64,000 nt of DNA, taken from contig CP182352.1 in NCBI GenBank assembly GCA_048571215.1, forward strand, positions 3,136,001 through 3,200,000. Reading direction: 5' to 3'. This DNA comes from Halarcobacter sp. (GTDB lineage Bacteria > Campylobacterota > Campylobacteria > Campylobacterales > Arcobacteraceae). A program made the position numbers and the translations under genes. This document shows, in pieces, positions 10,446 through 64,000 of the stretch (the first letter of the stretch is position 1; each line of letters begins with the position of its first letter). The notes below the pieces were generated by a model. That model saw only the letters and a program-made list of their open reading frames with translations, searched no databases and was not told the DNA's origin.

Positions 10446-10447
10446 AT

Positions 10448-12574: not shown

Positions 12575-12583
12575 TATATTTCC

Positions 12584-13585: not shown

Positions 13586-13606
13586 TTGACAATTTCTTGA
13601 CAATTT
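13586..13606 (-). promoter_or_regulatory. Direct-repeat operator candidate upstream of the SHP operon
   Basis: TTGACAATTT at 13586 and 13597 (11-bp period). Confidence 0.5.
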
Positions 13607-15627: not shown

Positions 15628-15641
15628 TTTATACCTTAAAT

Positions 15642-16856: not shown

Positions 16857-16860
16857 AATC

Positions 16861-34326: not shown

Positions 34327-35411
34327 GAGAAGAGATATTTAATATTGATATGCATATAAAAAATTGTGAGTATTTAAAAACTATATTTAATGATAATGAG
34401 GTTTCTATAGAGAAAATTGATGATGGGATGTTAAATAATATTTATAAAATTTTTTCATCTAGTAAATGTGTAATTATCAAGCAATATCCCGATTATATAA
34501 TTAGAGATGACAAAAAGATTAAATTACCTTTAAATAGAGTAAATTTAGAATATTCTGCAATTAAAAAATTTAAAGAAAATACACCAAGAAATATCCTAAA
34601 AGTTCTATTTTTTGATGAAAAAAACTCTTTAATAATTTTACAGTATTTAGAAAACTATCTAACCTTAGAGTATCTAATACATAATTTTATTGCTTTTGAT
34701 AATATAAGCTTTAGACTAAGTGATTCAATAGCTCGTAATCTTGTTTTTAATTCCTTTAAGTTTTCACAAGATAAAAAAGAGTTTTATAATAAGTTTATTA
34801 ATTTGGATATGAAAAATTATTTACTGAATACCCTATTTTTTATTAATCCTTCAATAGTTGAGAAAAATAAAAAAATAAAAAAAAATCTAGATGAATTAGA
34901 ATATAAATTTATTAATAAAAATGAGACTTTATTACATGGAAATTTAAAAACTAGTTCAATTATGATTAGAAAAGAAAACTTCTTTCTAATTGATTTTGAT
35001 GCTTGCTTTTTAGGACCTTATGGTTTTGAATTATCTTATCTAATAGCATCATTTATAAAAGAGTATATATATTGTAAAAATATAATAAATAACTATGAAT
35101 ACGCAAAGTATTTATTAATTGAGTTCTCTAATATTATTGTAAAATTTGAAAAGAATTTTTCTAAGTATTATTTTGAAAAGAGTAAAAATAATTTAGATAT
35201 AAAAGAGATAATGAGTGATAGTTTTGCATATGGTTCTTTACAATTACTACAAACTGTAACAAAATTACATGTTTTAAATAAAGAAGTTCTTAAAGAAAAT
35301 GAACAAAATGAGTTATTAGAATTCACTAAACATATAAATAAAGTATCATTATTTATTTTAGAAAATTATAAAGATATAAAAAGAATAGAGGATCTATTAG
35401 TAATATTGTAA
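34323..35411 (+). CDS. MtnK/APH-fold phosphotransferase-like protein, catalytic Asp replaced
   Basis: GMLNNIYKI, VIIKQYPDY, LNRVNLE, LLHGNLKTSSI, LIDFD...GPYGFEL. Confidence 0.7.
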   Translation: MREEIFNIDMHIKNCEYLKTIFNDNEVSIEKIDDGMLNNIYKIFSSSKCVIIKQYPDYIIRDDKKIKLPLNRVNLEYSAIKKFKENTPRNILKVLFFDEKNSLIILQYLENYLTLEYLIHNFIAFDNISFRLSDSIARNLVFNSFKFSQDKKEFYNKFINLDMKNYLLNTLFFINPSIVEKNKKIKKNLDELEYKFINKNETLLHGNLKTSSIMIRKENFFLIDFDACFLGPYGFELSYLIASFIKEYIYCKNIINNYEYAKYLLIEFSNIIVKFEKNFSKYYFEKSKNNLDIKEIMSDSFAYGSLQLLQTVTKLHVLNKEVLKENEQNELLEFTKHINKVSLFILENYKDIKRIEDLLVIL

Positions 35412-36542
35412 GTGAGTTTTTAATACTTTTACAGCTTGTTCTATAGAATTGAAACTTTTGTGATTGTTTACAAAAGTTTTAGCGATTAAACCCATTTTTG
35501 TATAGTAGATATCTTCGTTTTCTTTTTTTATATTATTACTATTAAAAGGGACTACATGTGGTATCATCATAGATAGCATTTGTACACCCATAAATCCAAT
35601 CATATCTTTTAATAACATATCATAATATTTAGTGTCTATCTTTTTATTTAGGGAAATTTTTTCTTTAAATTTATACCAAATATCTTCAATAACAAATAAT
35701 AACCAAGAGATATACTCTTTGTCACATCTTGCTAAATCATAATTAATAGTTAAAGCCACAAATACATAAATAATTGAGCTTAAATCGTATGATATAGGTC
35801 CAAAGTTTGAAAATTCATAATCAATTATAGAGATATCATCTTCATTTAAAAGTATAGAAGCTCCTTTTAAATCACCATGTAGTAAACAATCATTTTGTGA
35901 AATAAATTTATTTTTTAAACCTTCTATATTTTTAAATAATAAACTATTTTGTGAATCTAAATCTAAAAAAAGTGCATTTGTTTTTTTGTTTGAATTTGTT
36001 AGTTTTGTGTATCTATCTATTAAATCTGTAAAGATAAATTGTACACTTAAGTCTTCCATATGTTTATTGGCTTGAAAGGTATTTAGTAGTTTTTCCCTTT
36101 CTTCTGCATTTGTTCCAAAAGTAGAAGTTTTTAAAAAATTCGCACTTAAAAAATCACTTATTTGTTCTGAAAAGTTTTTATTGATTATTCCTCTTTGTAA
36201 AAATTGATTTAGAGATATTTTATTTTTAATATATTCAATTACTATTAAATTCTCTTTTTCATCAAAAAAATACAAGTTTGGTACAAAGTTTTGATTGCAA
36301 CTTTTAAAGAACTTTAATGCTTTTGCTTCATATAGAATTCTATTCACATTTAAAGGGTGTTTAGGTCCATATTGTTTAAAATATGGCAAAGCTCTTTTTA
36401 GAATAATTTGAATATCTTTTTTTTTATTTTCAAGTAGAAAAACCTCATTTATACCATTTGTCAAATCTTTGATGTAAATCTCTTCAAATTTAAAAAATCG
36501 CTTTAAATAGTCACTACTTTCTATATATTCCTCTATATCCAA
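35397..36542 (-). CDS. MtnK/APH-fold kinase
   Basis: GINEVF, ILKRALPY, LNVNRILYEA, LLHGDLKGASI, IIDYEF...GPISYDL; TTG start 10 bp after the secA-like stop. Confidence 0.75.
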   Translation of the reverse strand: MDIEEYIESSDYLKRFFKFEEIYIKDLTNGINEVFLLENKKKDIQIILKRALPYFKQYGPKHPLNVNRILYEAKALKFFKSCNQNFVPNLYFFDEKENLIVIEYIKNKISLNQFLQRGIINKNFSEQISDFLSANFLKTSTFGTNAEEREKLLNTFQANKHMEDLSVQFIFTDLIDRYTKLTNSNKKTNALFLDLDSQNSLLFKNIEGLKNKFISQNDCLLHGDLKGASILLNEDDISIIDYEFSNFGPISYDLSSIIYVFVALTINYDLARCDKEYISWLLFVIEDIWYKFKEKISLNKKIDTKYYDMLLKDMIGFMGVQMLSMMIPHVVPFNSNNIKKENEDIYYTKMGLIAKTFVNNHKSFNSIEQAVKVLKTHLQYY

Positions 36543-36552
36543 ATTATTCCTT

Positions 36553-38475
36553 TTATTTATTTTTTGTAAAAGTTAGATTATTTAAAAAATCTTGTTCATT
36601 TATTAGGTTTAATATCCTTTTTTTTGAACTAATCTTTTCAACATATTGTTGCATAAAAATATATATATTAATAATCAATTTTTTTCCAAAAGGTAAAGAT
36701 AAAATTTTTCCTAGGTGTGGATGGATAAAAGAAGGCATATATTTTTGTAAAAGTTCATCTTCGACACTTAAAAAAGTTTTTACACTCCCTTTTTGACCTT
36801 GTCTTCCTGCTCGTCCAAATAGTTGTAAATCAACTCTTCTTGACTCATTTCTTTCAGTTACAATTACATGGAGCCCACCTAAGGAGTTACTATTATTTAA
36901 TAAGATTATATCTGTACCTCTACCTGCCATATTTGTAGCAATAGTTATGCTACCTTCTTCGCCTGCTTTTTCTATGATTTGAGCTTCTATTTCATGATTT
37001 AATGCATGTAAAACTGTACAGCTTAAACCTAAATTTTTAATTTTTCTTTCTAAAAGGTTTGCTTCTAAAATTGTTCTTGCTCCCACTAAAATTGGTCTTT
37101 TAAATGAGTGAATATATTCTATTTCTTTTGCAACTAAATCCCATTTTTCTTTTTTTGTAAAGGTGATTTCATCTTTATATATTTGAATTTGCTTTGAAAC
37201 TCTTAATGGGATTTTTACTATTGTTAAGTAATAAATCTGCCATAACTCTTTTTCAATATTTTGTAATGTACCACTCATTCCACAAATTCTTTTGTACAAT
37301 CTAAAAAACCTTTGAAAACTCATTTTGATATTTGTTTTTGTAGGTTTTGTAAGTGGAATTCCCTCTTTTGCTTCTACAGCTTGATGTAAACCACCACTCC
37401 AAGAACGACTATTCATAAGTCTTCCTGTTTTTTCATCAACTATTACAATTTTATCATCAACTATTACATACTGCTTGTTTAAATGGTAAAACTCTTTTGC
37501 TAAGATGGCTTGTTTCATAATATATTTTAATCTATAATCAACTCTCCAGGCTAAAGGGAAACTCTCTTTATATTTTTTTATTAAGTCAAATCCTGATTCA
37601 TTTATCTCCACACTATTGTATATTTTATTTATTTCATAATGTTCATTTATCTCTAATCTATCTAAAACTTTTTTTGCTTCTATAGAAGCATCTAAAAGCT
37701 CTTTATCTTCTGTTTGTATTGATATAATAAGAGGAGTTATAGCTTCATCAGCTAATACACTATCAGCTTCGTCAATGATAACTGTGTGTAAGGGTCTTAA
37801 TGTTCTTTGTACAGCTTTATCTTGTAGTTCGTACAATAATTCTTTAGAAGAGCCAAATTCATAATCTACTTTCATCTTATCTCTTAGGTAATCAGCTAAT
37901 ATATCATTGCTTGTTGCATATACTACATCTTTTTGGTAATGTAAAACTCTTTGTTCGTTTTCCATATCATTAGTGATATATCCAACCTCTACAAAGCACC
38001 TATTGTATAAAGGAGCTAGTAGTTGAGCATCTCTTGATGCTAAGTAATCATTTGAGGTTATTATATGGCAAGGTTCTCCCCTCCATGATAAAGCAATTGT
38101 AGCTATACATGCAGTGATTGTTTTACCTTCTCCTGTTGCCATCTCTATTATGTATCCATTATACATAGCAAGAGCACCCATTATTTGTACAGGGTAGGGT
38201 CTTTTTTGTATTTCTCTAAAGGAGGTCTCACTTATTAGGGCAAATGTTAATTTTAACTCCTCAAAGTTATCTTTTCTTAATAAAAATTTATCTTTTTGGT
38301 TTCTTAATTTTGATTCTAACTCTTCATCACTAACATCTTTAAATGTTAAAGATAGTGAATATATCTCTTGGGCCTGCTTTTTTATTTTTTTATAATTAAA
38401 AAATTTTCTTCTAAAAAAGCCTTTTATATTGTGAATGAATGAATCAGCATCTTTATATAATTTATTATTTTCCAT
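36553..38475 (-). CDS. Accessory SecA-like ATPase, C-terminally truncated (motor domains only)
   Basis: EMATGEGKT, TSNDYLASRD, IDEADS, GLHQAVEAKEG, ATNMAGRGTDI, ESRRVDLQLFGRAGRQG, FLSVEDEL; ends about 70 aa later, 640 aa. Confidence 0.9.
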   Translation of the reverse strand: MENNKLYKDADSFIHNIKGFFRRKFFNYKKIKKQAQEIYSLSLTFKDVSDEELESKLRNQKDKFLLRKDNFEELKLTFALISETSFREIQKRPYPVQIMGALAMYNGYIIEMATGEGKTITACIATIALSWRGEPCHIITSNDYLASRDAQLLAPLYNRCFVEVGYITNDMENEQRVLHYQKDVVYATSNDILADYLRDKMKVDYEFGSSKELLYELQDKAVQRTLRPLHTVIIDEADSVLADEAITPLIISIQTEDKELLDASIEAKKVLDRLEINEHYEINKIYNSVEINESGFDLIKKYKESFPLAWRVDYRLKYIMKQAILAKEFYHLNKQYVIVDDKIVIVDEKTGRLMNSRSWSGGLHQAVEAKEGIPLTKPTKTNIKMSFQRFFRLYKRICGMSGTLQNIEKELWQIYYLTIVKIPLRVSKQIQIYKDEITFTKKEKWDLVAKEIEYIHSFKRPILVGARTILEANLLERKIKNLGLSCTVLHALNHEIEAQIIEKAGEEGSITIATNMAGRGTDIILLNNSNSLGGLHVIVTERNESRRVDLQLFGRAGRQGQKGSVKTFLSVEDELLQKYMPSFIHPHLGKILSLPFGKKLIINIYIFMQQYVEKISSKKRILNLINEQDFLNNLTFTKNK

Positions 38476-40628
38476 TACAATTGATATCTTTTTTGTAATA
38501 ATTGTCTAACAAATTTAACAGTTTGCGCAAATATGGTTTTTGGAGTTGTTTCTATTCTTAAGACTCCTGACCTATCTTCATATAATAGAGGATTCTTTTT
38601 ATCTCTTTTTATTTTTGCAATAACTTTAAAAAATGATTCTTTTGACTTTGTTCCTTTTTCATCATTTTCTAATATAGGAATATCTCCTCCTCCTCTAAAT
38701 CCTAGAACAGCAGAAGGAAGAGTATTTTGCTCATGGGGAATAACAGTTAAGTTTTCAACACTTATAGTTTTTGCTGCAATTCCTGTAAGTTTTATTTCAG
38801 ATGTAAAAAGCTCTGAGTTAAAAAGTTCAGATGCTTTTTCTTGAGGTACTGCTGCAATAAATTGTGCATTGTCATTATCAATAATTTTCCCGATATATTC
38901 TCTTCTTTTAATAATCCTATTTTTTAGTTTTTCAATATTATTACTAACAAATAAACCATCTTTTGGGGCTTTTATTATTAGGTTTTCTTTTTTCTCTTTT
39001 AAAAATTTTAATTTTTCGTCAAGCAATACTAATCTTTTTTCTATTGGTTTTAGATTGGCTATATTTTCTTGAGATGCTTTTAGTCTTAAAGCTTTTGTTT
39101 CAATTATCATAGCCCTTGTTCGCTCTAAGTCAAAATTTAGTGATTCGTTTTCTAGTTTTAGAATCAAGTCCCCTTTTTTAACTTTTTTAACATTATCTAT
39201 GTATATTTCAGTAACTAAACCATCACTAAAAGAGTATATATTAAGTAAACTAATTGGTTGTACTATTCCACTTGCTCTTATAGAATCTTTTATTGGTATA
39301 AACCCAATTAAAATTATTAAACTCAATGTAAAAAGTAAAGAGATTGTTACTGCATTAAATCTTTTTCCTCTCAATTCATTATCATGCAGTAGATACTTTA
39401 TAAAAGAATAAAGGGGCTTTATTATCCATATAAAAATTGATATTGATATAACAATTAGACCAAATAAAAACCATTGATCTGCAACAAATATAGCAATTAA
39501 AATCGCAACCATAAATTTATATATTAAACTTAAAATAGCATATAATGCTAGCCAAAAACTCTCTTTTTTGGAGTTAGTTGGGGGATATATATCTTTTAAT
39601 TTAAACAAATATTTTTTAACCCAAAAGAAACATTGTTCTCTTGCTCTTTGATAAAGATTTGGTATTTCTAATAAATCAGATAATATATAATAAGAATCGA
39701 ATTTCAATAGGGGATTACCATTAAAAACTAAACTTGAGACGGAACCTATAATCATTATATTAAATGCTATTGAATTTAAAGCACCTTCTCCTGTATTTAC
39801 CCAGATGATTACACAAATAAAAGCTATAAAAAGCTCAACCATCATCCCAGCAGCACCAACTAATGCTCTTTTATATTTATTTGTAAAAGCCCAGCTACTA
39901 CTTGCATCCATAAAGGGTAGGGGAGTAAATACTATAAACATAAGACCCACTGTTGTTACATTGCCTCCAAACTTTTTGACCATCATTACATGGCCTAATT
40001 CATGAAATACTTTTAATATCACTAAAGAAATATATAAAAATACGATATTATCAGCTGCAAGTACCCCTTGGGTTTGGTCAAAAAAACTATCAAAATTTTC
40101 TGCAATCAATTTTAAAGCATATATGAAAAAAACAAGCCAAATAAGTAAAAGAGTTTTACTGAAAAAAACATCAATAAATGGTTTAATTCTTATTAGCCAA
40201 TCATTAGGATTCCATAAAGGGATTTTAATAAATAAAAAACTAGCTAGTTTACCTCTAATCTCTTTATTTTTATTTTTAACAATTCTGTCAAACATATTTT
40301 CACTATCTGCTCTATGTTTAAAATATAAAAGGTTATTGCCATGTAGTTGAGATAATAAGTTTACTATTTCATCTTGTGTAGGAGCGATGTCAGGATTTGT
40401 TTTAATATATTCCTCCCATATATCTTCAACTGTTTTTTTTGTAGTTAATTTTGATAAAAACTTATAAGCTTCGGGAGTAACTTTAAAGAATTTATTACTG
40501 TACTTATCATTTAAAACATACCATGTCGTTCCTCTATAATATTGCTTATGTATGTTTATACTATAAAGTAAAGATACTTTTAATTCAGAGACAACATGCC
40601 ATGATTCACTATAAAGAGTTTCCTTCAT
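38475..40628 (-). CDS. PqqD-like domain + M50 (site-2) metalloprotease + membrane fusion (HlyD-like) domain
   Basis: HELGH, GAAGMMVEL, FNGNPLLKFDSYYIL; C-terminal lipoyl halves (VKKGDLILKL, IKAPKDG) around a coiled coil. Confidence 0.85.
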   Translation of the reverse strand: MKETLYSESWHVVSELKVSLLYSINIHKQYYRGTTWYVLNDKYSNKFFKVTPEAYKFLSKLTTKKTVEDIWEEYIKTNPDIAPTQDEIVNLLSQLHGNNLLYFKHRADSENMFDRIVKNKNKEIRGKLASFLFIKIPLWNPNDWLIRIKPFIDVFFSKTLLLIWLVFFIYALKLIAENFDSFFDQTQGVLAADNIVFLYISLVILKVFHELGHVMMVKKFGGNVTTVGLMFIVFTPLPFMDASSSWAFTNKYKRALVGAAGMMVELFIAFICVIIWVNTGEGALNSIAFNIMIIGSVSSLVFNGNPLLKFDSYYILSDLLEIPNLYQRAREQCFFWVKKYLFKLKDIYPPTNSKKESFWLALYAILSLIYKFMVAILIAIFVADQWFLFGLIVISISIFIWIIKPLYSFIKYLLHDNELRGKRFNAVTISLLFTLSLIILIGFIPIKDSIRASGIVQPISLLNIYSFSDGLVTEIYIDNVKKVKKGDLILKLENESLNFDLERTRAMIIETKALRLKASQENIANLKPIEKRLVLLDEKLKFLKEKKENLIIKAPKDGLFVSNNIEKLKNRIIKRREYIGKIIDNDNAQFIAAVPQEKASELFNSELFTSEIKLTGIAAKTISVENLTVIPHEQNTLPSAVLGFRGGGDIPILENDEKGTKSKESFFKVIAKIKRDKKNPLLYEDRSGVLRIETTPKTIFAQTVKFVRQLLQKRYQL

Positions 40629-40631
40629 ATA

Positions 40632-42515: not shown

Positions 42516-42521
42516 ATATAA

Positions 42522-43412
42522 TTACTTTTTTTCTATAGAATTAGTATCATCTAAAGGTTCCAATGATTCTAAAGTATAAGATATCTCAGAATTATTAATC
42601 TCTTTTCCTTTTTTATCAAAATATATAAAAGCTGATAAACCTGGAACAATTGATAAATCTTTATTTTCTAATTTTGCTTTTATTCTTACAAGTGAACTTG
42701 ACTTATCTGCAATTGGAGAGATAAATACAATTTTACTATTTTTATCAATTAATTTTTCACCATTTTTTATCTTAATTGCTAAGGATTTCCCAAGGGTGAG
42801 TTCTTGTGCATATTTTTGTTCGATATTAAATTCTACAAAACATTCTTTGTAATTAACTACTTCAACTATTGATTCACCACTTTTAACCCATTCCCCTATA
42901 TCAAAACGAATTTTTGTAATTACACCATCTATTGGGGAAGTTAGTTTATGACTTTCCAGAATATTTTTTGACATTTCATAGTCTATTCTTTCTATAAGCT
43001 TTTTTTGTTTTGTAGCAAGCATTTGACCTAATAGGTCATGGTATCTAATCTCTAAAGACATCAACTCATCTTTACTTACTGATTTACTTCTTTTATAAAT
43101 CTCTTTTGTTGAATCTAACATCTCTTTTAATAATCGTTCATTCTTTTTTAATGAATTATATTGAGATGAATCTCTATAAATCATTTTCTTTCTTTTTGTG
43201 TCTAGCATTTGTAAAGAATCATCTAATGTTAAAATCTCTTGGTTTTTTTTAACACTATTGCCCTCTTTTAAAAATATATTTAATATCTTTCCATCTATTG
43301 GAAGAGTGAGTTCTAAATGATGTTTTGGTAAAACTATACCTGTTACTTCCAATGCTAGAAGACTTGATGAGTATAAACATAAAGCTATTATAAAATTAAA
43401 AACTATTTTCAT
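42522..43412 (-). CDS. RND-type periplasmic adaptor (MFP)
   Basis: Signal peptide, PIDGKI..EGNSVKK, LTSPIDGVI..GEWV, FISPIAD, IVPGLS. Confidence 0.88.
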   Translation of the reverse strand: MKIVFNFIIALCLYSSSLLALEVTGIVLPKHHLELTLPIDGKILNIFLKEGNSVKKNQEILTLDDSLQMLDTKRKKMIYRDSSQYNSLKKNERLLKEMLDSTKEIYKRSKSVSKDELMSLEIRYHDLLGQMLATKQKKLIERIDYEMSKNILESHKLTSPIDGVITKIRFDIGEWVKSGESIVEVVNYKECFVEFNIEQKYAQELTLGKSLAIKIKNGEKLIDKNSKIVFISPIADKSSSLVRIKAKLENKDLSIVPGLSAFIYFDKKGKEINNSEISYTLESLEPLDDTNSIEKK

Positions 43413-45032: not shown

Positions 45033-45036
45033 TATT

Positions 45037-46596: not shown

Positions 46597-46606
46597 AATC
46601 TTTTCC

Positions 46607-55600: not shown

Positions 55601-58600
55601 TACTATTCCATTTAATGTTATATCAAAGGCTTCATCATTAGCTACATCTTCTGTTGTTAATAGAATATTATTATTTGCTGTTATTGTTCCTGCTGTTATT
55701 GCTCCATTTATTGTTGAAACTACTGCATTACCTGTTGTTCCTAAAGCACTAAGTGAAGTTATACTTAAATCATCACTTTCTTGAATAAATATATCACCAC
55801 TTGTTGTATTTGAAGCAGTAAGTGATGCTATTGTTGTATCTATATCTGCATCCCCACTTGCTCCTATACCTGTTGCTGCAACTAAACTAACTACTGTTGT
55901 AGTTCCTTTTATATTTGCATCTTCTGTATCTAGGTTATCACTAATATTTCCATTTGTTGCTGTTATATTTACATTTGAGCTTGTATCTATTACTGATAGT
56001 GCTACATTTGTATTTGCTGTATATGTTACAACTCCACTTGTACTTGTTGTATTTTTACCACTATTCATGATAATTGAACCAGCACTTGATACTACATCTA
56101 TATTTCCAGCTACAGAACTAATAGCTCCATCTTGTGTGATATCTCCTAGGCTTGATACAATATTTACTACACCTAAGTTTGAACTTTGTGTTATTGCATC
56201 TATTGTTAAAGTATCTGTTTCTTTAACATATATATCTCCACTTGTTGCATTTGTGATATCTATATTTGATACTGTTGTATTAATATCATCTACACTTGTT
56301 CCAACCCCTGTATTAGAGTTTATTGTTAATACATCTGCTATTACATTTGCTGTTTCTGCACTTAGGTTATCACTTATATATCCATTTGTTGCACTTAAGT
56401 TTACATTTGCTGTTGTTGAAACCAACGATAGTTTTATATTATTAGCTGCATTTAGGGTTATATCTGCACTATTAGAACTTTTTGTTAGGGTGTCATTATT
56501 CATAATGATTGAACCAGCAATTGAACTTAAAGTTATAGTTCCACTTGTTGAGTTAATATCTCCATCTTGTGTTATATCTCCTAGAGTTGCTACAACACTT
56601 ATATTACCTGCTAAGGTTTGTGTTATTGCATCTATTGTTAAAGTATCTGTTTCTTTAACATATATATCTCCACTTGTTGCATTTGTGATATCTATATTTG
56701 ATACTGTTGTATTAATATCATCTACACTTGTTCCAACCCCTGTATTAGAGTTTATTGTTAATACATCTGCTATTACATTTGCTGTTTCTGCACTTAGGTT
56801 ATCACTAATATTTCCACTTGTTGCACTTAGGTTTACATTTGCTGCTGTTGAAACTAATGATAATTTTATATTATCATTTGCAGTGTAATTTATAATACCA
56901 TTTGTAGATGAAGCACTTGTTGCATCAGCCATAACAATAGAATCATTATATGAAGTGATATTTATTGCCCCTGCTGCATATGTATGTGTTATATTTGCAT
57001 TTATATTTATATTTCCATCAGCTTTTAAATTAACATTCTCTCCCGCACTAGTAATCGTTTCATTTACATTAACTACTGTATCTATCCCTGTATCTTTTGC
57101 TTGGATAGTTAAGCTTCCACTTCCTGCATTACTAACCCCATTTTGTCCTGATGCTATTGTGATATTACCATTTTGAGTAGTTAAGCTTGTTGTTCCACCT
57201 GTTGCACTTTGAGATAATCTATTTACTACTATATCTCCTCCACTTGCTAGCTCATTTATTTTTATATTCCCTGTCCCTAAGTTTTGGGCATCTAATGTTG
57301 TAACTTTTGTAAACATTAAATCTATCCCTGTTTGTGAACTTACTGTAAGGGTATTTGAAACTAACTCTTCACTTGTTAATCCATCTGTAGAATCATTAAT
57401 TTGTGAAATCTTACCTGATTGTGAATATAAAGTTATATCACTTGACTGGGCTTCTATATAGTTTGAAATAGTTATATTATTTATTGCATCTAAAGTGATA
57501 TCTCCTGATGCTATTAATTTATTATATTCATTTGAATAATCTTCTATTTTTATACTTCCACCATATATCTCTACATTATCTTTAAACGTTAATTGATTTG
57601 ATGCTATTACACCTACTCTTACTTCTCCAACTGCTGTTGATTTTGTATGGTTATCTATATCTTTATGTCCAAATATTATTTTAGAGAAACCATCTGTTAG
57701 TGTCCCCATTTCTGTTGCTGTTATATTTAGAGTATTTGCTGTTGTTTCTAGTGGTGGTGATGAAATTGACATATCATAACTTGTATTTGTTGGTCTTAAT
57801 GTTAAGGTTCCTGCACCTGTACTTGTTATTGATTCTTCTCCACCTTTGAAGTTTATCTCATTACCTTCAATTAAAATATCTCCACCTGCAGAAACGCCAT
57901 CTTCAAACACTACTAAGTCTGCACCTATTATTGTTAGGTTTCCACTTAGTGTAAGTTGTTGATTAAAGGTTACTGTTCCTGTAGCATAAATATAAATATC
58001 TCCATCTACATTTACTTCCCCTTTAAAGGTAACATTTTCGGCACCTTCACTATTATCACTTGTATCTAAAATACTTAGACCTTCTAATTGGTCTGTGTAT
58101 CCCACTGTACTATTTACAACTATACTTCCACCATTTGCATTTAAGTTTAATGTATCTGTTGTTCCAGCATTACCATCTAATCTGTGAGTTGTTGATGCTC
58201 CTAGGGTAATATTACCTGTACCATCTGTTCCTGCTGTTATTGAGTCATTACTTGTAACTACAATTGAATCACTTATTAATACATCATCTGCCAATGATAT
58301 TGCTGTATCTGATCCACCTGATCCAAAGTTTAAGGTATGTCCTGATCCATATATACTTAATGATGTACCTTCCCCTCCTATGAGATTATCATAGATGTAC
58401 ATCTCTCCTCCTAGGTTTGGATTGTTGATTGTTAAAGATACATCAATATTTATATCTCCTTGTTCAGAAGATTTATCTCCTATCTCAATAATGCTTCCAC
58501 TATTTTCATCACCAATTACTAAACTATTAGCACTATCTTTTAGATTTTTTATTTGAGAAGAAGTAAGGTGTAGAGCATCTGATGATACACTTGTACTATC

Positions 58601-58885
58601 ACCAATTACTAATGTTTGATTTTGATTTGTTTTGATGTTTGCAGATGGTTTGTCTTGATTGTTTTCTTGAACATAAACTATATTGTTGTTTTCTTCACTT
58701 AAATAATCTACAGTAGCACCAACAATTGGATTTGCAGATAGTAGCAATCTAGATTCTAAAGGATTAATAGTAAACCTATTTTTATTAAAACTAATACTTT
58801 TTTTTAATTCTTTTGCTTTTAATTTTTTTTGTGTTAACTCTTTAATTCTTTTAAAAAATCTAAAATCGCTAAATGATTTTGACAT
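46607..58885 (-). CDS. Giant repetitive beta-rich surface protein/adhesin with LEPR-XLL-type leader (4092 aa)
   Basis: Lys-rich N-terminus then PLESRLLLSA (motif at aa 43-51); Thr/Ser/Asn/Ile-rich repeats; no Sec h-region; ends FEYWIEDIAL. Confidence 0.9.
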   Translation of the reverse strand: MSKSFSDFRFFKRIKELTQKKLKAKELKKSISFNKNRFTINPLESRLLLSANPIVGATVDYLSEENNNIVYVQENNQDKPSANIKTNQNQTLVIGDSTSVSSDALHLTSSQIKNLKDSANSLVIGDENSGSIIEIGDKSSEQGDINIDVSLTINNPNLGGEMYIYDNLIGGEGTSLSIYGSGHTLNFGSGGSDTAISLADDVLISDSIVVTSNDSITAGTDGTGNITLGASTTHRLDGNAGTTDTLNLNANGGSIVVNSTVGYTDQLEGLSILDTSDNSEGAENVTFKGEVNVDGDIYIYATGTVTFNQQLTLSGNLTIIGADLVVFEDGVSAGGDILIEGNEINFKGGEESITSTGAGTLTLRPTNTSYDMSISSPPLETTANTLNITATEMGTLTDGFSKIIFGHKDIDNHTKSTAVGEVRVGVIASNQLTFKDNVEIYGGSIKIEDYSNEYNKLIASGDITLDAINNITISNYIEAQSSDITLYSQSGKISQINDSTDGLTSEELVSNTLTVSSQTGIDLMFTKVTTLDAQNLGTGNIKINELASGGDIVVNRLSQSATGGTTSLTTQNGNITIASGQNGVSNAGSGSLTIQAKDTGIDTVVNVNETITSAGENVNLKADGNININANITHTYAAGAINITSYNDSIVMADATSASSTNGIINYTANDNIKLSLVSTAANVNLSATSGNISDNLSAETANVIADVLTINSNTGVGTSVDDINTTVSNIDITNATSGDIYVKETDTLTIDAITQTLAGNISVVATLGDITQDGDINSTSGTITLSSIAGSIIMNNDTLTKSSNSADITLNAANNIKLSLVSTTANVNLSATNGYISDNLSAETANVIADVLTINSNTGVGTSVDDINTTVSNIDITNATSGDIYVKETDTLTIDAITQSSNLGVVNIVSSLGDITQDGAISSVAGNIDVVSSAGSIIMNSGKNTTSTSGVVTYTANTNVALSVIDTSSNVNITATNGNISDNLDTEDANIKGTTTVVSLVAATGIGASGDADIDTTIASLTASNTTSGDIFIQESDDLSITSLSALGTTGNAVVSTINGAITAGTITANNNILLTTEDVANDEAFDITLNGIVTSNNGNISIVSDNDVLVNANIIASTATKTIQVIALNDITMADGTQIATTNSGNILLDAGNDVNIESINAGTGSVSITALGNLVDTDAIDTTNSDVDIQASSLLLDITGFIGTATNHIETTVTTLSAKGAGLFVSESDGLSIDSVSVDVNGVNSDGSITATANSAQENLVSTDKLILVSASGDIDVTSNATVSSNGDTLLKADNITLSSALSSTSGALSIITGGTFAQNANITTVGTVDVQANAISMASTSKTDATAANVRYASTTTLSLGQIVTTSDVSLLASSISDANANTNNITADELKLTVSGSTATTLDYIETDISTLSSNGGSLFITQAGNLTINETSAISVTTINTDASTTNTEDALQSNISSSGEVAITSTTGSITITDGKNIIAQDDITLNAANNIKLSLVSTTANVNLSATNGYISDNLSAETANVIADVLTINSNTGVGTSVDDINTTVSNIDITNATSGDIYVKETDTLTIDAITQSSNLGVVNIVSSLGDITQDGAISSVAGNIDVVSSAGSIIMNSGKNTTSTSGVVTYTANTNVALSVIDTSSNVNITATNGNISDNLDTEDANIKGTTTVVSLVAATGIGASGDADIDTTIASLTASNTTSGDIFIQESDDLSITSLSALGTTGNAVVSTINGAITAGTITANNNILLTTEDVANDEAFDITLNGIVTSNNGNISIVSDNDVLVNANIIASTATKTIQVIALNDITMADGTQIATTNSGNILLDAGNDVNIESINAGTGSVSITALGNLVDTDAIDTTNSDVDIQASSLLLDITGFIGTATNHIETTVTTLSAKGAGLFVSESDGLSIDSVSVDVNGVNSDGSITATANSAQENLVSTDKLILVSASGDIDVTSNATVSSNGDTLLKADNITLSSALSSTSGALSIITGGTFAQNANITTVGTVDVQANAISMASTSKTDATAANVRYASTTTLSLGQIVTTSDVSLLATTITNNLISTAPFNNVKADELKITASTLGTNASNLKTDLATLSANVSGDVFVKEANAVNIGQTSAITVTTIGTDASTSNTIDALQTKLSSLGNLVLQASGVITTLDITGNIEASGNILVKSATNITSNAQILSTGGNITLDASANININDNVTTQTANKTIDIFSTAGNVIMSDASQVSTSDSNIRVKAKDFSISSLNAGTANVSLFLTGVFSDSGDTNTDITANKLRVYLSGAGVVGANTQNIETSINVLSAVVNKNGLYLDNSKDILIDNVEAISVNKVGTNGLTTARTDDAQDSINSTGTVSLIANGSILDRADNSVSIISDKLILDATNGIGTQANNLNTTVSNIDITNATSGDIYVKETDTLTIDAITQSSNLGVVNIVSTLGDITQDGAISSVAGNIDVVSSAGSIIMNSGKNTTSTNGVVTYTANTNVALSVIDTSSNVNITATNGNISDNLSAETANVIADVLTINSNTGVGTSVDDINTTVSNIDITNATSGDIYVKETDTLTIDAITQSSNLGVVNIVSTLGDITQDGAISSVAGNIDVVSSAGSIIMNSGKNTTSTNGVVTYTANTNVALSVIDTSSNVNITATNGNISDNLSAETANVIADVLTINSNTGVGTSVDDINTTVSNIDITNATSGDIYVKETDTLTIDAITQSSNLGVVNIVSTLGDITQDGAISSVAGNIDVVSSAGSIIMNSGKNTTSTNGVVTYTANTNVALSVIDTSSNVNITATNGNISDNLSAETANVIADVLTINSNTGVGTSVDDINTTVSNIDITNATSGDIYVKETDTLTIDAITQSSNLGVVNIVSTLGDITQDGAISSVAGNIDVVSSAGSIIMNSGKNTTSTNGVVTYTANTNVALSVIDTSSNVNITATNGNISDNLSAETANVIADVLTINSNTGVGTSVDDINTTVSNIDITNATSGDIYVKETDTLTIDAITQSSNLGVVNIVSSLGDITQDGAISSVAGNIDVVSSAGSIIMNSGKNTTSTSGVVTYTANTNVALSVIDTSSNVNITATNGNISDNLDTEDANIKGTTTVVSLVAATGIGANGDADIDTTIASLTASNTTSGDIFIQESDDLILDSITTSGNVDITASNLTNTATSLLSSSLLSLDVTSADINTKVSTLTATASGDVTINESDDLILDSITTSGNVDITASNLTNTATSLLSSSLLSLDVTSADINTKVSTLTATASGDVTINESDDLILDSITTSGNVDITASNLTNTATSLLSSSLLSLDVTSADINTKVSTLTATASGDVTINESDDLILDSITTSGNVDITASNLTNTATSLLSSSLLSLDVTSADINTKVSTLTATASGDVTINESDDLILDSITTSGNVDITASNLTNTATSLLSSSLLSLDVTSADINTKVSTLTATASGDVTINESDDLILDSITTSGNVDITASNLTNTATSLLSSSLLSLDVTSADINTKVSTLTATASGDVTINESDDLILDSITTSGNVDITASNLTNTATSLLSSSLLSLDVTSADINTKVSTLTATASGDVTINESDDLILDSITTSGNVDITASNLTNTATSLLSSSLLSLDVTSADINTKVSTLTATASGDVTINESDDLILDSITTSGNVDITASNLTNTATSLLSSSLLSLDVTSADINTKVSTLTATASGDVTINESDDLILDSITTSGNVDITASNLTNTATSLLSSSLLSLDVTSADINTKVSTLTATASGDVTINESDDLILDSMTTDGNVTISANNITNNTTLVADKLSLDVTTASLDTDIAVLKAIASGDVSINELDYLVVEDVQTSSNVTIQTQDSMKIGTISANTVTLKTQDGRITDYYNNQNTNITAQNLNMVGKGAFTKGEYLLNSTSLNNLSNNAINTDVRNLFIANKQEAKIDSKIGSSTSVFLVEKDNYSLQVVNKTIVTPKLSQIETTMDLTNSYSAVEQWSFAKEIDYELLNSSYVMKTHHVQAQENIQTRVTSLFESINNPTYVNHTSNVVNTQTVQTSITDVLNPISLNYSNYTSNFNENLIIDRIDSELFEYWIEDIAL
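47535..49453. repeat. Tandem array of 10 x 189 bp (63 aa) in giant gene 1
   Basis: Marker TCTAGAATTAAATCATCACTTTC recurs every 189 bp from 47541 to 49431. Confidence 0.95.
49604..51684. repeat. Tandem array of about 4.8 x 432 bp (144 aa)
   Basis: Marker CCACTATTCATGATAATTGA at 49731, 50163, 50595, 51027, 51459. Confidence 0.92.
52708..56464. repeat. About 1.7-kb block duplicated at 2046-bp spacing
   Basis: 52708-54418 matches 54754-56464; antisense ORFs recur at +2046 (53490/55536, 54021/56067). Confidence 0.9.
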
Positions 58886-58962
58886 TATTATAGTTCCTTA
58901 TGTGCCTTTAGCAAAAAAAAGTAAGATTTTCTTAACTAAAGGTAAATTTTATATATATAAAT

Positions 58963-58999
58963 AAAAAAAGGTAGTGATATCATATCACTACCTTTTTTT
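58963..58999 (-). terminator. Rho-independent terminator downstream of sapC
   Basis: Perfect 18-bp inverted repeat AAAAAAAGGTAGTGATAT-C-ATATCACTACCTTTTTTT. Confidence 0.85.
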
Positions 59000-59003
59000 T
59001 AAA

Positions 59004-59759
59004 TTATTCTTTAATCTCTTCAAATCTATCTTCAATACTATCTGTTTGAGTTAAACTTTTATCTTTAAAACCTAAAAGTCTTTCTATTTGAGAAAGAGAA
59101 CTTAAGTGTGAATATATAACTGATAAATATCTTTTATTTTTCATTTCTATAAATTTTTCATCAGAAAAATTATTTAGTCTTTCTTCATTAATAACAAAAG
59201 CACCTGCGATATTTTTCATTTCATTTTTAATATTTACTCTCATATTTAAAGGAGTAAATAGGTTATTTTCTTTTAGAAATTTTGAAAATTCAGTTGTAAA
59301 CATATCCATCTGATGCAGTTCTGACAGATATTGTTTAACTTTATCCATTGTTTCAGATGGAGTATTATCTTCGTTGAAAAGGTTTTCTCCTTCTTCATCA
59401 TTTAAAAATTCACTTGATTCATCTATACAAACAGTAAATTTATTTTCCTCATTACTTTTTGCTAAAGCGAAAGGATATCTTCTAATTATTGCTGGTATAT
59501 ACGAGGCATTCCATTTTTCATTATCATTACTTAAAAATAAGTTTTCTCCTGGTTCTAGTCCAAGCATTGCAACTGGTTTAAATTCATCATTTTCCTTATC
59601 CTCTATAAATACTATAGGATATATTGAAGAGGCTTTTGGGAATTCATGAGCCATAACAGTAGCTATATGTACATCTTTTGAAAAACTAAAATTATTAATA
59701 GGTTTAATTTTTTTATTTTTATGTCTTTCTAGCGTAATTGGTACAATTGTTTTAAACAT
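59004..59759 (-). CDS. sapC: SapC family protein
   Basis: EFPKASSIYPIVF, PVAMLGL..GENLF, WNASYIPAIIRRYPF, INEERL, IYSHLSSL. Confidence 0.88.
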   Translation of the reverse strand: MFKTIVPITLERHKNKKIKPINNFSFSKDVHIATVMAHEFPKASSIYPIVFIEDKENDEFKPVAMLGLEPGENLFLSNDNEKWNASYIPAIIRRYPFALAKSNEENKFTVCIDESSEFLNDEEGENLFNEDNTPSETMDKVKQYLSELHQMDMFTTEFSKFLKENNLFTPLNMRVNIKNEMKNIAGAFVINEERLNNFSDEKFIEMKNKRYLSVIYSHLSSLSQIERLLGFKDKSLTQTDSIEDRFEEIKE

Positions 59760-59833
59760 TTATTTCTCCTTAAATATTAATGATTTTAATCTTGCTAATA
59801 ATTAAGAGCTTGATATAAAATCAAAATCTAATT

Positions 59834-59842
59834 ATTATAGCA
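59834..59842 (-). promoter_or_regulatory. Extended -10 promoter candidate for sapC
   Basis: TGCTATAAT on the minus strand about 75 bp upstream of the sapC start (AAGGAG SD). Confidence 0.5.
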
Positions 59843-59872
59843 AAACTATATCATATTTATATCACAAAATTA

Positions 59873-62800
59873 TTACAAGGCAATATCTTCAATCCAATAT
59901 TCAAATAACTCACTGTCAATTCTGTCTATAATTAAATTCTCATTAAAATTACTTGTATAGTTTGAATAATTCAATGATATTGGATTTAATACATCAGTAA
60001 TTGATGTTTGTACTGTTTGAGTATTTACAACATTACTTGTATGATTTACATATGTTGGATTATTTATTGATTCAAACAATGAGGTTACTCTTGTTTGGAT
60101 ATTCTCTTGTGCTTGCACATGATGTGTTTTCATTACATATGACGAGTTTAATAACTCATAATCTATCTCTTTTGCGAAACTCCATTGCTCTACAGCACTA
60201 TAACTATTAGTTAGATCCATAGTTGTTTCTATTTGACTTAACTTAGGAGTTACTATTGTTTTATTTACAACTTGTAAAGAATAGTTGTCTTTTTCTACTA
60301 AAAATACAGATGTTGAAGAACCTATTTTTGAGTCTATTTTAGCTTCTTGTTTATTTGCAATAAATAAATTTCTTACATCTGTATTTATTGCATTATTTGA
60401 CAAGTTATTTAAGCTTGTACTATTTAATAGATACTCACCTTTTGTGAAGGCACCTTTACCTACCATATTTAAATTTTGAGCTGTTATATTCGTATTTTGA
60501 TTATTATAATAATCAGTGATTCTACCATCTTGTGTTTTTAAAGTTACTGTATTCGCACTAATAGTACCTATTTTCATACTATCTTGAGTTTGTATAGTTA
60601 CATTACTTGATGTTTGTACATCTTCTACTACTAAGTAATCCAATTCATTAATACTTACATCACCACTAGCAATTGCTTTTAATACTGCTATATCTGTATC
60701 TAACGAAGCTGTAGTTACATCTAAGCTTAGTTTATCAGCAACTAATGTGGTATTATTAGTAATATTATTTGCACTAATTGTTACATTCCCATCAGTTGTC
60801 ATACTATCTAGAATTAAATCATCACTTTCATTAATAGTTACATCACCACTTGCAGTTGCTGTTAAAGTAGATACTTTTGTATTAATATCTGCACTTGTTA
60901 CATCTAAACTTAATAAACTACTTGACAATAAAGAAGTAGCTGTATTTGTTAGATTAGAAGCTGTTATATCTACATTTCCTGATGTTGTAATACTATCTAG
61001 AATTAAATCATCACTTTCATTAATAGTTACATCACCACTTGCAGTTGCTGTTAAAGTAGATACTTTTGTATTAATATCTGCACTTGTTACATCTAAACTT
61101 AATAAACTACTTGACAATAAAGAAGTAGCTGTATTTGTTAGATTAGAAGCTGTTATATCTACATTTCCTGATGTTGTAATACTATCTAGAATTAAATCAT
61201 CACTTTCATTAATAGTTACATCACCACTTGCAGTTGCTGTTAAAGTAGATACTTTTGTATTAATATCTGCACTTGTTACATCTAAACTTAATAAACTACT
61301 TGACAATAAAGAAGTAGCTGTATTTGTTAGATTAGAAGCTGTTATATCTACATTTCCTGATGTTGTAATACTATCTAGAATTAAATCATCACTTTCATTA
61401 ATAGTTACATCACCACTTGCAGTTGCTGTTAAAGTAGATACTTTTGTATTAATATCTGCACTTGTTACATCTAAACTTAATAAACTACTTGACAATAAAG
61501 AAGTAGCTGTATTTGTTAGATTAGAAGCTGTTATATCTACATTTCCTGATGTTGTAATACTATCTAGAATTAAATCATCACTTTCATTAATAGTTACATC
61601 ACCACTTGCAGTTGCTGTTAAAGTAGATACTTTTGTATTAATATCTGCACTTGTTACATCTAAACTTAATAAACTACTTGACAATAAAGAAGTAGCTGTA
61701 TTTGTTAGATTAGAAGCTGTTATATCTACATTTCCTGATGTTGTAATACTATCTAGAATTAAATCATCACTTTCATTAATAGTTACATCACCACTTGCAG
61801 TTGCTGTTAAAGTAGATACTTTTGTATTAATATCTGCACTTGTTACATCTAAACTTAATAAACTACTTGACAATAAAGAAGTAGCTGTATTTGTTAGATT
61901 AGAAGCTGTTATATCTACATTTCCTGATGTTGTAATACTATCTAGAATTAAATCATCACTTTCATTAATAGTTACATCACCACTTGCAGTTGCTGTTAAA
62001 GTAGATACTTTTGTATTAATATCTGCACTTGTTACATCTAAACTTAATAAACTACTTGACAATAAAGAAGTAGCTGTATTTGTTAGATTAGAAGCTGTTA
62101 TATCTACATTTCCTGATGTTGTAATACTATCTAGAATTAAATCATCACTTTCATTAATAGTTACATCACCACTTGCAGTTGCTGTTAAAGTAGATACTTT
62201 TGTATTAATATCTGCACTTGTTACATCTAAACTTAATAAACTACTTGACAATAAAGAAGTAGCTGTATTTGTTAGATTAGAAGCTGTTATATCTACATTT
62301 CCTGATGTTGTAATACTATCTAGAATTAAATCATCACTTTCATTAATAGTTACATCACCACTTGCAGTTGCTGTTAAAGTAGATACTTTTGTATTAATAT
62401 CTGCACTTGTTACATCTAAACTTAATAAACTACTTGACAATAAAGAAGTAGCTGTATTTGTTAGATTAGAAGCTGTTATATCTACATTTCCTGATGTTGT
62501 AATACTATCTAGAATTAAATCATCACTTTCATTAATAGTTACATCACCACTTGCAGTTGCTGTTAAAGTAGATACTTTTGTATTAATATCTGCACTTGTT
62601 ACATCTAAACTTAATAAACTACTTGACAATAAAGAAGTAGCTGTATTTGTTAGATTAGAAGCTGTTATATCTACATTTCCTGATGTTGTAATACTATCTA
62701 GAATTAAATCATCACTTTCATTAATAGTTACATCACCACTTGCAGTTGCTGTTAAAGTAGATACTTTTGTATTAATATCTGCACTTGTTACATCTAAACT

Positions 62801-64000
62801 TAATAAACTACTTGACAATAAAGAAGTAGCTGTATTTGTTAGATTAGAAGCTGTTATATCTACATTTCCTGATGTTGTAATACTATCTAGAATTAAATCA
62901 TCACTTTCATTAATAGTTACATCACCACTTGCAGTTGCTGTTAAAGTAGATACTTTTGTATTAATATCTGCACTTGTTACATCTAAACTTAATAAACTAC
63001 TTGACAATAAAGAAGTAGCTGTATTTGTTAGATTAGAAGCTGTTATATCTACATTTCCTGATGTTGTAATACTATCTAGAATTAAATCATCACTTTCTTG
63101 AATAAATATATCACCACTTGTTGTATTTGAAGCAGTAAGTGATGCTATTGTTGTATCTATATCTGCATCCCCATTTGCTCCTATACCTGTTGCTGCAACT
63201 AAACTAACTACTGTTGTAGTTCCTTTTATATTTGCATCTTCTGTATCTAGGTTATCACTAATATTTCCATTTGTTGCTGTTATATTTACATTTGAGCTTG
63301 TATCTATTACTGATAGTGCTACATTTGTATTTGCTGTATATGTTACAACTCCACTTGTACTTGTTGTATTTTTACCACTATTCATGATAATTGAACCAGC
63401 ACTTGATACTACATCTATATTTCCAGCTACAGAACTAATAGCTCCATCTTGTGTGATATCTCCTAGGCTTGATACAATATTTACTACACCTAAGTTTGAA
63501 CTTTGTGTTATTGCATCTATTGTTAAAGTATCTGTTTCTTTAACATATATATCTCCACTTGTTGCATTTGTGATATCTATATTTGATACTGTTGTATTAA
63601 TATCATCTACACTTGTTCCAACCCCTGTATTAGAGTTTATTGTTAATACATCTGCTATTACATTTGCTGTTTCTGCACTTAGGTTATCACTAATATTTCC
63701 ATTTGTTGCTGTTATATTTACATTTGAGCTTGTATCTATTACTGATAGTGCTACATTTGTATTTGCTGTATATGTTACAACTCCATTTGTACTTGTTGTA
63801 TTTTTACCACTATTCATGATAATTGAACCAGCACTTGATACTACATCTATATTTCCAGCTACAGAACTAATAGCTCCATCTTGTGTGATATCTCCTAGAG
63901 TTGATACAATATTTACTACACCTAAGTTTGAACTTTGTGTTATTGCATCTATTGTTAAAGTATCTGTTTCTTTAACATATATATCTCCACTTGTTGCATT
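59873..64000 (-). CDS. Second giant repetitive surface protein, 3' part only (5' end outside the window)
   Basis: Frame stays open to the window edge; the Met at 63817 is internal to a repeat; matches the C-terminal part of 46607-58885. Confidence 0.9.
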   Translation of the reverse strand, partial: NATSGDIYVKETDTLTIDAITQSSNLGVVNIVSTLGDITQDGAISSVAGNIDVVSSAGSIIMNSGKNTTSTNGVVTYTANTNVALSVIDTSSNVNITATNGNISDNLSAETANVIADVLTINSNTGVGTSVDDINTTVSNIDITNATSGDIYVKETDTLTIDAITQSSNLGVVNIVSSLGDITQDGAISSVAGNIDVVSSAGSIIMNSGKNTTSTSGVVTYTANTNVALSVIDTSSNVNITATNGNISDNLDTEDANIKGTTTVVSLVAATGIGANGDADIDTTIASLTASNTTSGDIFIQESDDLILDSITTSGNVDITASNLTNTATSLLSSSLLSLDVTSADINTKVSTLTATASGDVTINESDDLILDSITTSGNVDITASNLTNTATSLLSSSLLSLDVTSADINTKVSTLTATASGDVTINESDDLILDSITTSGNVDITASNLTNTATSLLSSSLLSLDVTSADINTKVSTLTATASGDVTINESDDLILDSITTSGNVDITASNLTNTATSLLSSSLLSLDVTSADINTKVSTLTATASGDVTINESDDLILDSITTSGNVDITASNLTNTATSLLSSSLLSLDVTSADINTKVSTLTATASGDVTINESDDLILDSITTSGNVDITASNLTNTATSLLSSSLLSLDVTSADINTKVSTLTATASGDVTINESDDLILDSITTSGNVDITASNLTNTATSLLSSSLLSLDVTSADINTKVSTLTATASGDVTINESDDLILDSITTSGNVDITASNLTNTATSLLSSSLLSLDVTSADINTKVSTLTATASGDVTINESDDLILDSITTSGNVDITASNLTNTATSLLSSSLLSLDVTSADINTKVSTLTATASGDVTINESDDLILDSITTSGNVDITASNLTNTATSLLSSSLLSLDVTSADINTKVSTLTATASGDVTINESDDLILDSITTSGNVDITASNLTNTATSLLSSSLLSLDVTSADINTKVSTLTATASGDVTINESDDLILDSITTSGNVDITASNLTNTATSLLSSSLLSLDVTSADINTKVSTLTATASGDVTINESDDLILDSMTTDGNVTISANNITNNTTLVADKLSLDVTTASLDTDIAVLKAIASGDVSINELDYLVVEDVQTSSNVTIQTQDSMKIGTISANTVTLKTQDGRITDYYNNQNTNITAQNLNMVGKGAFTKGEYLLNSTSLNNLSNNAINTDVRNLFIANKQEAKIDSKIGSSTSVFLVEKDNYSLQVVNKTIVTPKLSQIETTMDLTNSYSAVEQWSFAKEIDYELLNSSYVMKTHHVQAQENIQTRVTSLFESINNPTYVNHTSNVVNTQTVQTSITDVLNPISLNYSNYTSNFNENLIIDRIDSELFEYWIEDIAL
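60801..63097. repeat. Tandem array of 12 x 189 bp in giant gene 2
   Basis: Same marker from 60807 to 63075 (2268 bp = 12 units). Confidence 0.95.

Follow-up and report, generated by a model that had tools for sequence, protein, structure and literature searches.

The LEPR-XLL proteins are among the largest that bacteria make, and how such giants get across two membranes when they have no Sec signal is the question addressed here, by way of a 64,000-nucleotide stretch of a Halarcobacter sp. genome (hereafter the window; contig CP182352.1, positions 3,136,001 to 3,200,000, or G000:C1:3136001-3200000 in the single-contig, 3.6 Mb genome denoted G000). From position 35397 to its end, the window holds ten co-oriented genes on the minus strand of the open reading frame (ORF) list, among them two LEPR-XLL giants and the parts of a putative exporter. 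The closest described counterpart is a module reported in silico by Kamneva, Poudel and Ward in 2015 (PMC4452313), in which a SecA was proposed as the ATPase and an M50 protein as the pore, with no ATP-binding cassette (ABC) protein. In common with that module, the present locus has a short second SecA without most of the wing/scaffold, a canonical SecA encoded elsewhere, and adjacent M50-HlyD, GAF-HlyD and HlyD/biotin-lipoyl genes with an OEP gene (optional in the module), again with no ABC. By its gene content, then, the locus most likely belongs to this predicted, uncharacterised export system. The accessible parts of the 2015 paper name no cargo, RiPP recognition element (RRE), LEPR leader, SapC or SecA-less clade, and they call the biological role unknown. 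The original prediction for the window, of a route matching no characterised secretion type, consequently stands in one respect, in that no experimental test was found, and falls in another, in that the module and the SecA/M50 inference were already in print.

Several better-known systems share individual features with the locus. Type I secretion (HlyB-HlyD-TolC; LapBCE/LapA; SapCDEF of Campylobacter fetus) has the same duct of TolC and adaptor, the same SapC neighbour and the same kind of cargo, giant and repetitive, free of Cys and lacking a Sec signal, but the present locus has no cognate HlyB/PrtD-type ABC, contains three different adaptors, and adds an N-terminal LEPR tag, a SecA-like ATPase and an intramembrane protease. 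In coupling RRE leader recognition and cleavage to export, it would work like the peptidase-containing ABC exporters and the RRE-fused site-2 proteases of ribosomally synthesised and post-translationally modified peptides (RiPPs; daptide NF041824, lasso RRE 6jx3); unlike those exporters, it has an M50 rather than a C39 protease, no ABC domain, an adaptor fusion and a substrate of thousands of residues. Accessory SecA2 paralogues, for their part, serve special substrates, often giant adhesins. Those of Mycobacterium, Listeria and Streptococcus (SecA2/SecY2) are likewise second SecA proteins, whereas here the host is Gram-negative, SecY2 and Asp genes are absent from the locus, and the C-terminal third of SecA is missing. 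In Chlorobium chlorochromatii, Cag_662-665 comprise sapC, tolC and two LEPRxLL giants that are expressed and exported (bioRxiv 10.64898/2026.03.19.712371); the likeness lies in the giants, sapC and tolC, and in the available part of the preprint ordinary type I export is assumed. PMC8567305, in its accessible part, refers to the LEPR-XLL motif as an export signal put forward in 2004, and the accessible parts of PMC10868602, PMC11438254 and PMC13723633 contain nothing on the export route.

The best explanation of the locus, and a reasonably likely one, is an ABC-independent, envelope-spanning machine for the export and processing of LEPR-XLL giants, here in its SecA-containing form. That it is a dedicated exporter of both giants in the cluster is considered quite probable. 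The machine and its candidate cargo are as follows, in window coordinates.

36553..38475, minus strand: short SecA paralogue of 640 aa, made up of two nucleotide-binding domains (NBD1 and NBD2), the PPXD clamp between them and a scaffold helix, after which it ends (SecA_DEAD, PP_bind, P-loop)
38475..40628, minus strand: fusion of an RRE (PqqD-like), an M50 zinc protease and an MFP (membrane fusion protein, the periplasmic adaptor), 717 aa, with 7 predicted transmembrane (TM) segments (Pfam, fold model)
40632..42515, minus strand: GAF-MFP of 627 aa, with a cytoplasmic GAF region, one TM segment (362-380) and a periplasmic adaptor (Pfam, topology prediction)
42522..43412, minus strand: periplasmic adaptor (MFP, HlyD-type) of 296 aa with an N-terminal signal-like segment (Pfam/NCBIfam)
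43413..45032, minus strand: TolC-family outer-membrane channel of 539 aa (OEP PF02321, E 3e-21)
45037..46596, minus strand: accessory lipoprotein of 519 aa from the ATG at 46596, matching no known family
46607..58885, minus strand: giant protein 1, candidate cargo, 4,092 aa, with a LEPR-XLL leader
46607..46645, minus strand: C-terminal aromatic-acidic motif F-E-Y-W-x-E-D-x-x-L, in both giants and common to many giants of related loci
58700..58885, minus strand: basic leader carrying the LExRxLL-SA (LEPR-XLL) motif, a candidate tag for export and processing (NF012209, alignment)
59004..59759, minus strand: SapC, cytoplasmic, 251 aa (PF07277, E 1e-71)
59873..64000, minus strand: 3' end of giant protein 2, candidate cargo, 12,400 aa; whole gene at G000:C1:3195873-3233075

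The single co-oriented ten-gene cluster that had been predicted is indeed present, all on the minus strand, and the Pfam/NCBIfam domains of its proteins agree with the names given to them; the cluster contains neither an ABC protein nor a resistance-nodulation-division (RND) pump.

On comparative sequence grounds, the conserved core of the system is TolC, the adaptors, the RRE-M50-adaptor and the LEPR giant, with the short SecA marking one clade (clade A). The M50-adaptor occurs in 32 of 184 genomes of the family, and LEPR-XLL matches in 16, all within those 32 carriers and none among the 152 non-carriers. The LEPR-XLL model has 24 positions and is insensitive, and a LEPR leader is visible by eye in three further carriers (G001, G006 and G043). 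In a sample of the phylum (n=401), four genomes have the M50-adaptor and three have LEPR above the cut-off, all among the four; a single sub-cut-off LEPR match, in a frame of 37 aa, belongs to a genome without the M50 protein. Outside the family, 80 GTDB loci from several phyla, being the best 80 of 594 and picked by clade-A patterns, contain GAF-MFP in 76 cases, the SecA-like protein in 73, an MFP in 54, TolC in 49, SapC in 24 and ABC motifs in 4. SecA adjoins M50 in 72 of the 75 loci where 1 kb or more of room is available, the three exceptions having a short SecA elsewhere, and the gene order is common to homologues from Planctomycetota, Verrucomicrobiota and Pseudomonadota. The leader of a giant lies within 10 kb in 15 of the 80 loci, according to a hand-checked list used because the automatic LEPR label gave antisense false positives. 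Both the choice of loci and the kinship of related genomes, which are not independent, so that the profile overstates the association, have to be held against this reading. Profiling and neighbourhood comparison nevertheless find that the module genes co-occur in other genomes (the 80 loci and the 32 of 184), and the 184-genome profile and the loci together support a conserved ABC-less module of TolC, adaptors and M50 fusion that travels with LEPR-XLL giants.

A cognate ABC ATPase might still have lain just outside the window. None was seen, however, in the 12 kb before giant protein 2, and none that is HlyB-like in the 80 loci; in the four loci with ABC motifs, the ABC genes look by their neighbours like genes of the dpp/opp type (peptide import) or the LolD type. 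Within the window, the nearest ABC ATPase is a protein of 207 aa with a MacB/FtsX permease partner, ~15 kb away (19895-20518), which the ABC motif scan of the genome overlooked, that scan being incomplete. The surrounding stretch, window 16377-21597, is one operon of the MacB/FtsX permease, the small ABC ATPase, a COX1-like membrane protein and a YceI protein. Elsewhere in the genome there are four HlyB-type ABC transporters, each in its own ABC-MFP set near another giant (2,563-7,303 aa). It could be argued that the giants of the window are type I substrates, which leave C-terminus first through a HlyB-type ABC encoded elsewhere, with the M50 protein trimming only the leader, much as LapG trims the N-terminal part of LapA. 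The four HlyB-type transporters, the conserved C-terminal motif of the giants and a SapC of type I provenance all favour such borrowing, as does the accessible part of the Chlorobium preprint, which proposes C-terminus-first export via SapC/TolC/HlyD (10.64898/2026.03.19.712371). It is nonetheless improbable, since the four ABCs each come with a separate adaptor and have a different giant close by, since no clade-A locus of the 80 has a HlyB-like gene, and since the short SecA would be left unexplained. Repeats of the repeats-in-toxin (RTX) type are, moreover, scarce in the giants: GGxGxD is absent from giant protein 1 and occurs only 5 times in the 12,400 aa of giant protein 2, with the conserved C-terminal motif present.

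Among the parts of the proposed ABC-independent machine is the 717-aa fusion. In its model (pLDDT 82), the N-terminal part has three strands and three helices, and residues 16-103 match the lasso-peptide RRE 6jx3_B (Z 8.5, rmsd 3.5, 84 aligned); the PqqD match is weak (E 0.025, below the Pfam cut-off). The adaptor part is of the MacA/MexA type by fold search and dominates searches with the whole model, the M50 part being known from sequence. Against the RRE-fused daptide intramembrane protease NF041824 the fusion gives E 3e-41, below the cut-off. The M50 ligands H209, E210, H213, N305, P306 and D311 are invariant in 41 aligned sequences, HExxH is present in 73 of 73 full-length fusions, NPxxxxD is also invariant, and the protein has the defining features of a site-2 protease. 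Given its invariant active site, the M50 fusion appears to be a functioning protease rather than just a pore.

Recognition of the leader by the fusion was modelled by co-folding RRE/M50(1-345) and Zn with the 42-residue leader, which scored 0.56, whereas the best of three controls gave 0.01; the partner pLDDT was 57 or higher, and contacts agreed to 91% or more. Of solved pairs, 116 of 157 attain the mark, as do 2 of 215 mismatched pairs, but just 18 of these solved pairs, along with the two mismatches, attain it at 0.60 or lower. The model thus gives weak support to binding of the leader by RRE/M50, and memory of solved RRE-leader complexes may explain the score. The proposal that the 4,092-aa protein is the cargo is supported by the nested co-inheritance of LEPR proteins and M50-adaptor, and weakly by the co-folding. 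The invariant active site, the GAF domains and the likeness to NF041824 might also be read as a trans-envelope signalling or processing complex, in which a GAF sensor and regulated intramembrane proteolysis mature or release giants that are exported otherwise. This is very unlikely indeed: three adaptors and TolC constitute a transport architecture, and the giants have no Sec signal, TPS domain or autotransporter domain that would make another route evident.

The giants themselves both have LExRxLL at residue 43 and score above the cut-off of NF012209 (the LEPR-XLL family), and both are without Cys and without a hydrophobic signal peptide. Pfam gave no match to a two-partner secretion (TPS) or autotransporter domain, either in giant protein 1 or within the 2,000 N-terminal residues of giant protein 2, nor is there a TpsB partner at the locus, which does not have the make-up of a two-partner (type Vb) system. 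The whole genome has 13 ORFs of at least 2,000 aa, of which three are RTX-rich giants and a further two, as we judge from their N-termini, presumably resemble two-partner substrates. Giant protein 2 extends 33 kb past the window. Giant protein 1 has an N-terminal ~153 aa of its own, and the DNA of its remainder matches the final 11.3 kb of giant protein 2 at 99.7-99.8% identity, with 948 C-terminal residues the same; the direct repeat, of 11-12 kb, lies at window 46607-58426 and G000:C1:3195873-3207206. An assembly artefact behind the repeat is unlikely, given that the two leaders are only 45% identical over 75 aa, that the last four codons differ by three synonymous changes, and that a relative, G055, has the same tandem arrangement (a frame of 16,201 aa followed by 3,452 aa, with all 1,677 compared 3'-end bases identical). 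The two giants are probably old paralogues homogenised by gene conversion, or else a recombination substrate for length switching.

The C-terminal motif of the giants occurs in 11 of 25 large upstream ORFs of related loci as against 15 of 1250 other ORFs, the pattern having been chosen after inspection of the data, and it may act as a second signal or an anchor. On clade-A giants it recurs across phyla as F-E/D-Y-W-x-E-x-x-x-L (L041, L042, L044, L045, L047, L055, L062, L072, L084 and L117), and the clade-B giants of the family have a different end, Y-G-x-x-h-x-x-L-F. SapC tracks with the giants, adjoining LEPR giants in G055 and G058 as well as occurring in the loci counted above, and is a possible chaperone. 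The lipoprotein is found in 3 of the 80 GTDB loci (one being G060), and in G055 and G058. Several Campylobacterota loci, and a small number of others, have a member of its family placed between the giant and tolC (L021, L024, L025, L070 and L072). Atlas look-alikes of the lipoprotein and of the giants' C-terminus were only unnamed clusters or weak DUF5649 leads.

The truncated SecA that had been predicted is confirmed as such: it ends after the scaffold helix, with Walker A, Walker B and motif VI intact. Indeed, Walker A GxGK(T/S) and Walker B DE(A/V)D are found in 49 of 49 aligned short-SecA homologues. The SecA profile covers only residues 9-609 of the 841 aa of Bacillus subtilis SecA, and the model (pLDDT 89) retains the clamp, the two nucleotide folds and a single long helix at its end, with the closed-clamp SecA 6ITC as its best fit (Z 42, rmsd 2.7). 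The region that is absent we take to be the wing and the two-helix finger, and the missing C-terminal third as a whole is presumably the part which engages SecY. A full-length SecA of 871 aa is encoded elsewhere (G000:1382234). The short secA gene overlaps that of the M50 fusion by 1 bp, and translational coupling of this kind is frequent in clade-A loci.

Necessarily, the second SecA invites comparison with accessory Sec systems. The short SecA, however, falls below all SecA2 model cut-offs, and the locus does not qualify as an accessory Sec (SecA2/SecY2) system. It might yet be a SecA2-like helper of the housekeeping SecYEG in a two-step route, in which the giant enters the periplasm and is there held, then released, by the adaptors and TolC. 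The model of the short SecA does resemble SecY-bound SecA, the secondary SecA has been placed as sister to actinobacterial SecA2 (PMC4452313, accessible part), and symbiosis proteins of Chlorobium reportedly wait within the periplasm (10.64898/2026.03.19.712371, accessible part). Such a route is decidedly improbable, since the giants have no hydrophobic signal and the C-terminal third of SecA is missing. Furthermore, we know of no TolC duct that loads proteins from the periplasm.

Evidence from a sister clade (clade B) bears on the energy source of the proposed ABC-independent exporter. In a quick tree, which left out about half of the clade-A rows, this clade forms a deep branch of 17 of 61 rows as against 44 (SH-aLRT, an approximate likelihood-ratio branch test, 100). 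The short SecA is found in only 6 of 154 near-complete family genomes, compared with 28 of 152 for the M50-adaptor; the other carriers mostly have a second form of the system, consisting of a lipoprotein TolC, an adaptor, a LEPR giant, a 448-aa adaptor and the M50-adaptor, with no ATPase. G055 carries both forms. The SecA-less gene set is also present on plasmids of E. coli, Azospirillum and Burkholderia, with LEPR-like giant leaders in E. coli and Burkholderia. The sister-clade LEPR giants contain DUF4347 in the two that were scanned.

Several points weigh against the SecA-containing machine as here proposed. The sister clade has TolC, two adaptors, the M50-adaptor and the LEPR giant, but its locus lacks an ATPase; the complete genomes G001, G006, G043, G104 and G169 encode only full-length SecA and no short SecA; and in G178 (50 contigs) a clade-A M50 fusion stands beside a LEPR giant, with no short SecA found. 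The short SecA itself stops at about residue 609 of the B. subtilis protein and is without the two-helix-finger region. The conserved C-terminal motif and SapC are equally compatible with C-terminus-first type I export. Finally, the open-access literature yielded no paper linking the machine to LEPR giants, and no secretion, binding or ATPase experiment on the machine.

Because the sister clade has neither a short SecA nor any ATPase in its locus, 'SecA-powered' cannot define the whole family. Of the claim that a SecA-like motor supplies the energy there remain the intact ATPase motifs and the retention beside M50, and set against it are the SecA-less clade and the missing two-helix-finger region. 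Judged from these sequences, retention of the short SecA in its own clade argues for a real job, though not as the sole energy source, and that it is the main energy source of the exporter is a tentative and slightly doubtful proposition. It could instead be an accessory chaperone or unfoldase on the same duct with the same cargo, the energy in both clades coming from the proton motive force via the M50 fusion, or from extracellular folding. The wide spread and otherwise complete appearance of the SecA-less systems, down to the plasmid-borne sets, speak for this, as does the loss of the C-terminal third; its place next to M50 in 72 of 75 clade-A loci, the intact motifs and the frequent translational coupling speak against it. 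On balance it is somewhat unlikely, with the proviso that its likelihood overlaps with that of the SecA-containing machine, the duct and cargo being common to both.

Some further observations concern the SecA-less systems. The sister-system loci are L028, L030, L032, L034, L037, L038, L141, L142 and L143, and the sister-clade M50-adaptor matched 18 Escherichia and 8 Citrobacter plasmid records. At 11800-20106 of a Phyllobacterium plasmid (L145), the gene ahead of a clade-B adaptor pair has the annotation HrpK-domain protein, and a separate canonical type I ABC/HlyD pair lies 3 kb away on the opposite strand. The idea that the Pectobacterium MRP 'T1SS' is an experimentally tested SecA-less member was not confirmed; the accessible parts of PMC6584795 and PMC6963963 mention LapG and give no gene list.

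As to mechanism, the parts, their predicted topology, the intact catalytic motifs and the co-inheritance with LEPR giants are observed, and every dynamic step is inferred from them. The giant would be synthesised in the cytoplasm; its leader, basic and non-hydrophobic, has LExRxLL-SA at its end, and SapC may hold the giant in an export-competent state. The cytoplasmic RRE of the 7-TM fusion would then bind the leader, as RREs do RiPP leaders, and the M50 site would cut nearby. Several fusion copies may contribute their TM bundles, together with GAF-MFP, to an inner-membrane pore, from which the adaptor domains of the fusion and of GAF-MFP, along with the soluble MFP, would make a duct to TolC. 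Docked on the cytoplasmic side, the short SecA would feed or ratchet the unfolded chain through its clamp, N-terminus first; as the two-helix finger is absent, a role as clamp-ratchet or chaperone is likelier for it than one as a pusher of the SecY type. Repeats folding outside would add pull, and anchoring or release of the product may fall to the C-terminal motif and the lipoprotein.

The remaining features of the cluster concern its transcription and its boundary.

58963..58999, minus strand: 17-bp terminator-like hairpin with A and T runs on either side (-20.1 kcal/mol)
35397..36542, minus strand: methylthioribose-kinase-like APH kinase of 381 aa, closest to methylthioribose kinase and below its cut-off (196.7 vs 275 bits)

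The predicted gaps of 10 bp or less from giant protein 1 to the kinase hold once the lipoprotein start is set at the ATG given above; those flanking sapC are 118 and 113 bp. Since the hairpin separates sapC from giant protein 1, it suggests two transcription units, one of giant protein 2 and sapC and the other an operon from giant protein 1 to the kinase. A promoter scan was at chance level (98 vs 97.7). Although probably co-transcribed with the operon, the kinase was rejected as a part of the system: it is found in 1 of the 80 related loci (G060, 2.9 kb distant), 22 of 24 kinase-bearing family genomes have no M50-adaptor, and by this distribution it is a passenger outside the conserved module. 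It converges with a second methylthioribose-kinase-like gene (34323-35411, plus strand; 25% identical, 3' ends overlapping by 15 bp), and the two genes, noted under window 33331-36542, come after an uncharacterised 331-aa ORF and a two-component pair. The N-terminus of TolC, like that of the soluble MFP, is signal-like. DUF3467, considered as a system partner, was found in 0 of 5 genomes (G000 and four relatives). Elsewhere in the window, 9252-15627 holds genes for cytochrome b561, two dihaem cytochromes c and a DUF1924 protein, flanked by two two-component systems, and in the genome six 306-aa ORFs with the same C-terminus (G000:C1:71113, 800555, 1915986, 2569171, 2956537 and 3342531) are probably an insertion sequence.

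Whether the system amounts to a distinct secretion type, rather than a variant of type I, is evenly poised. If distinct, it would be defined by an RRE which reads an N-terminal LEPR-XLL tag, an M50-adaptor which is both leader peptidase and channel, and a three-adaptor duct to TolC, in two forms, one with a SecY-independent SecA clamp motor and the other with no ATPase of its own. What is gained already is that joining the machine described in 2015 with LEPR-XLL cargo makes a directly testable proposal, for which the SecA-less sister clade is a natural control on the energy question. Should the proposal be true, it would give a way of exporting some of the largest proteins of bacteria, including the 12,400-aa giant of this Halarcobacter and the 16,201-aa open frame of G055, with instances in Campylobacterota, Pseudomonadota, Planctomycetota, Verrucomicrobiota, Desulfobacterota and enterobacterial plasmids. 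It would also mean that a SecA can work without SecY, and would make available a short N-terminal tag for the export of very large proteins.

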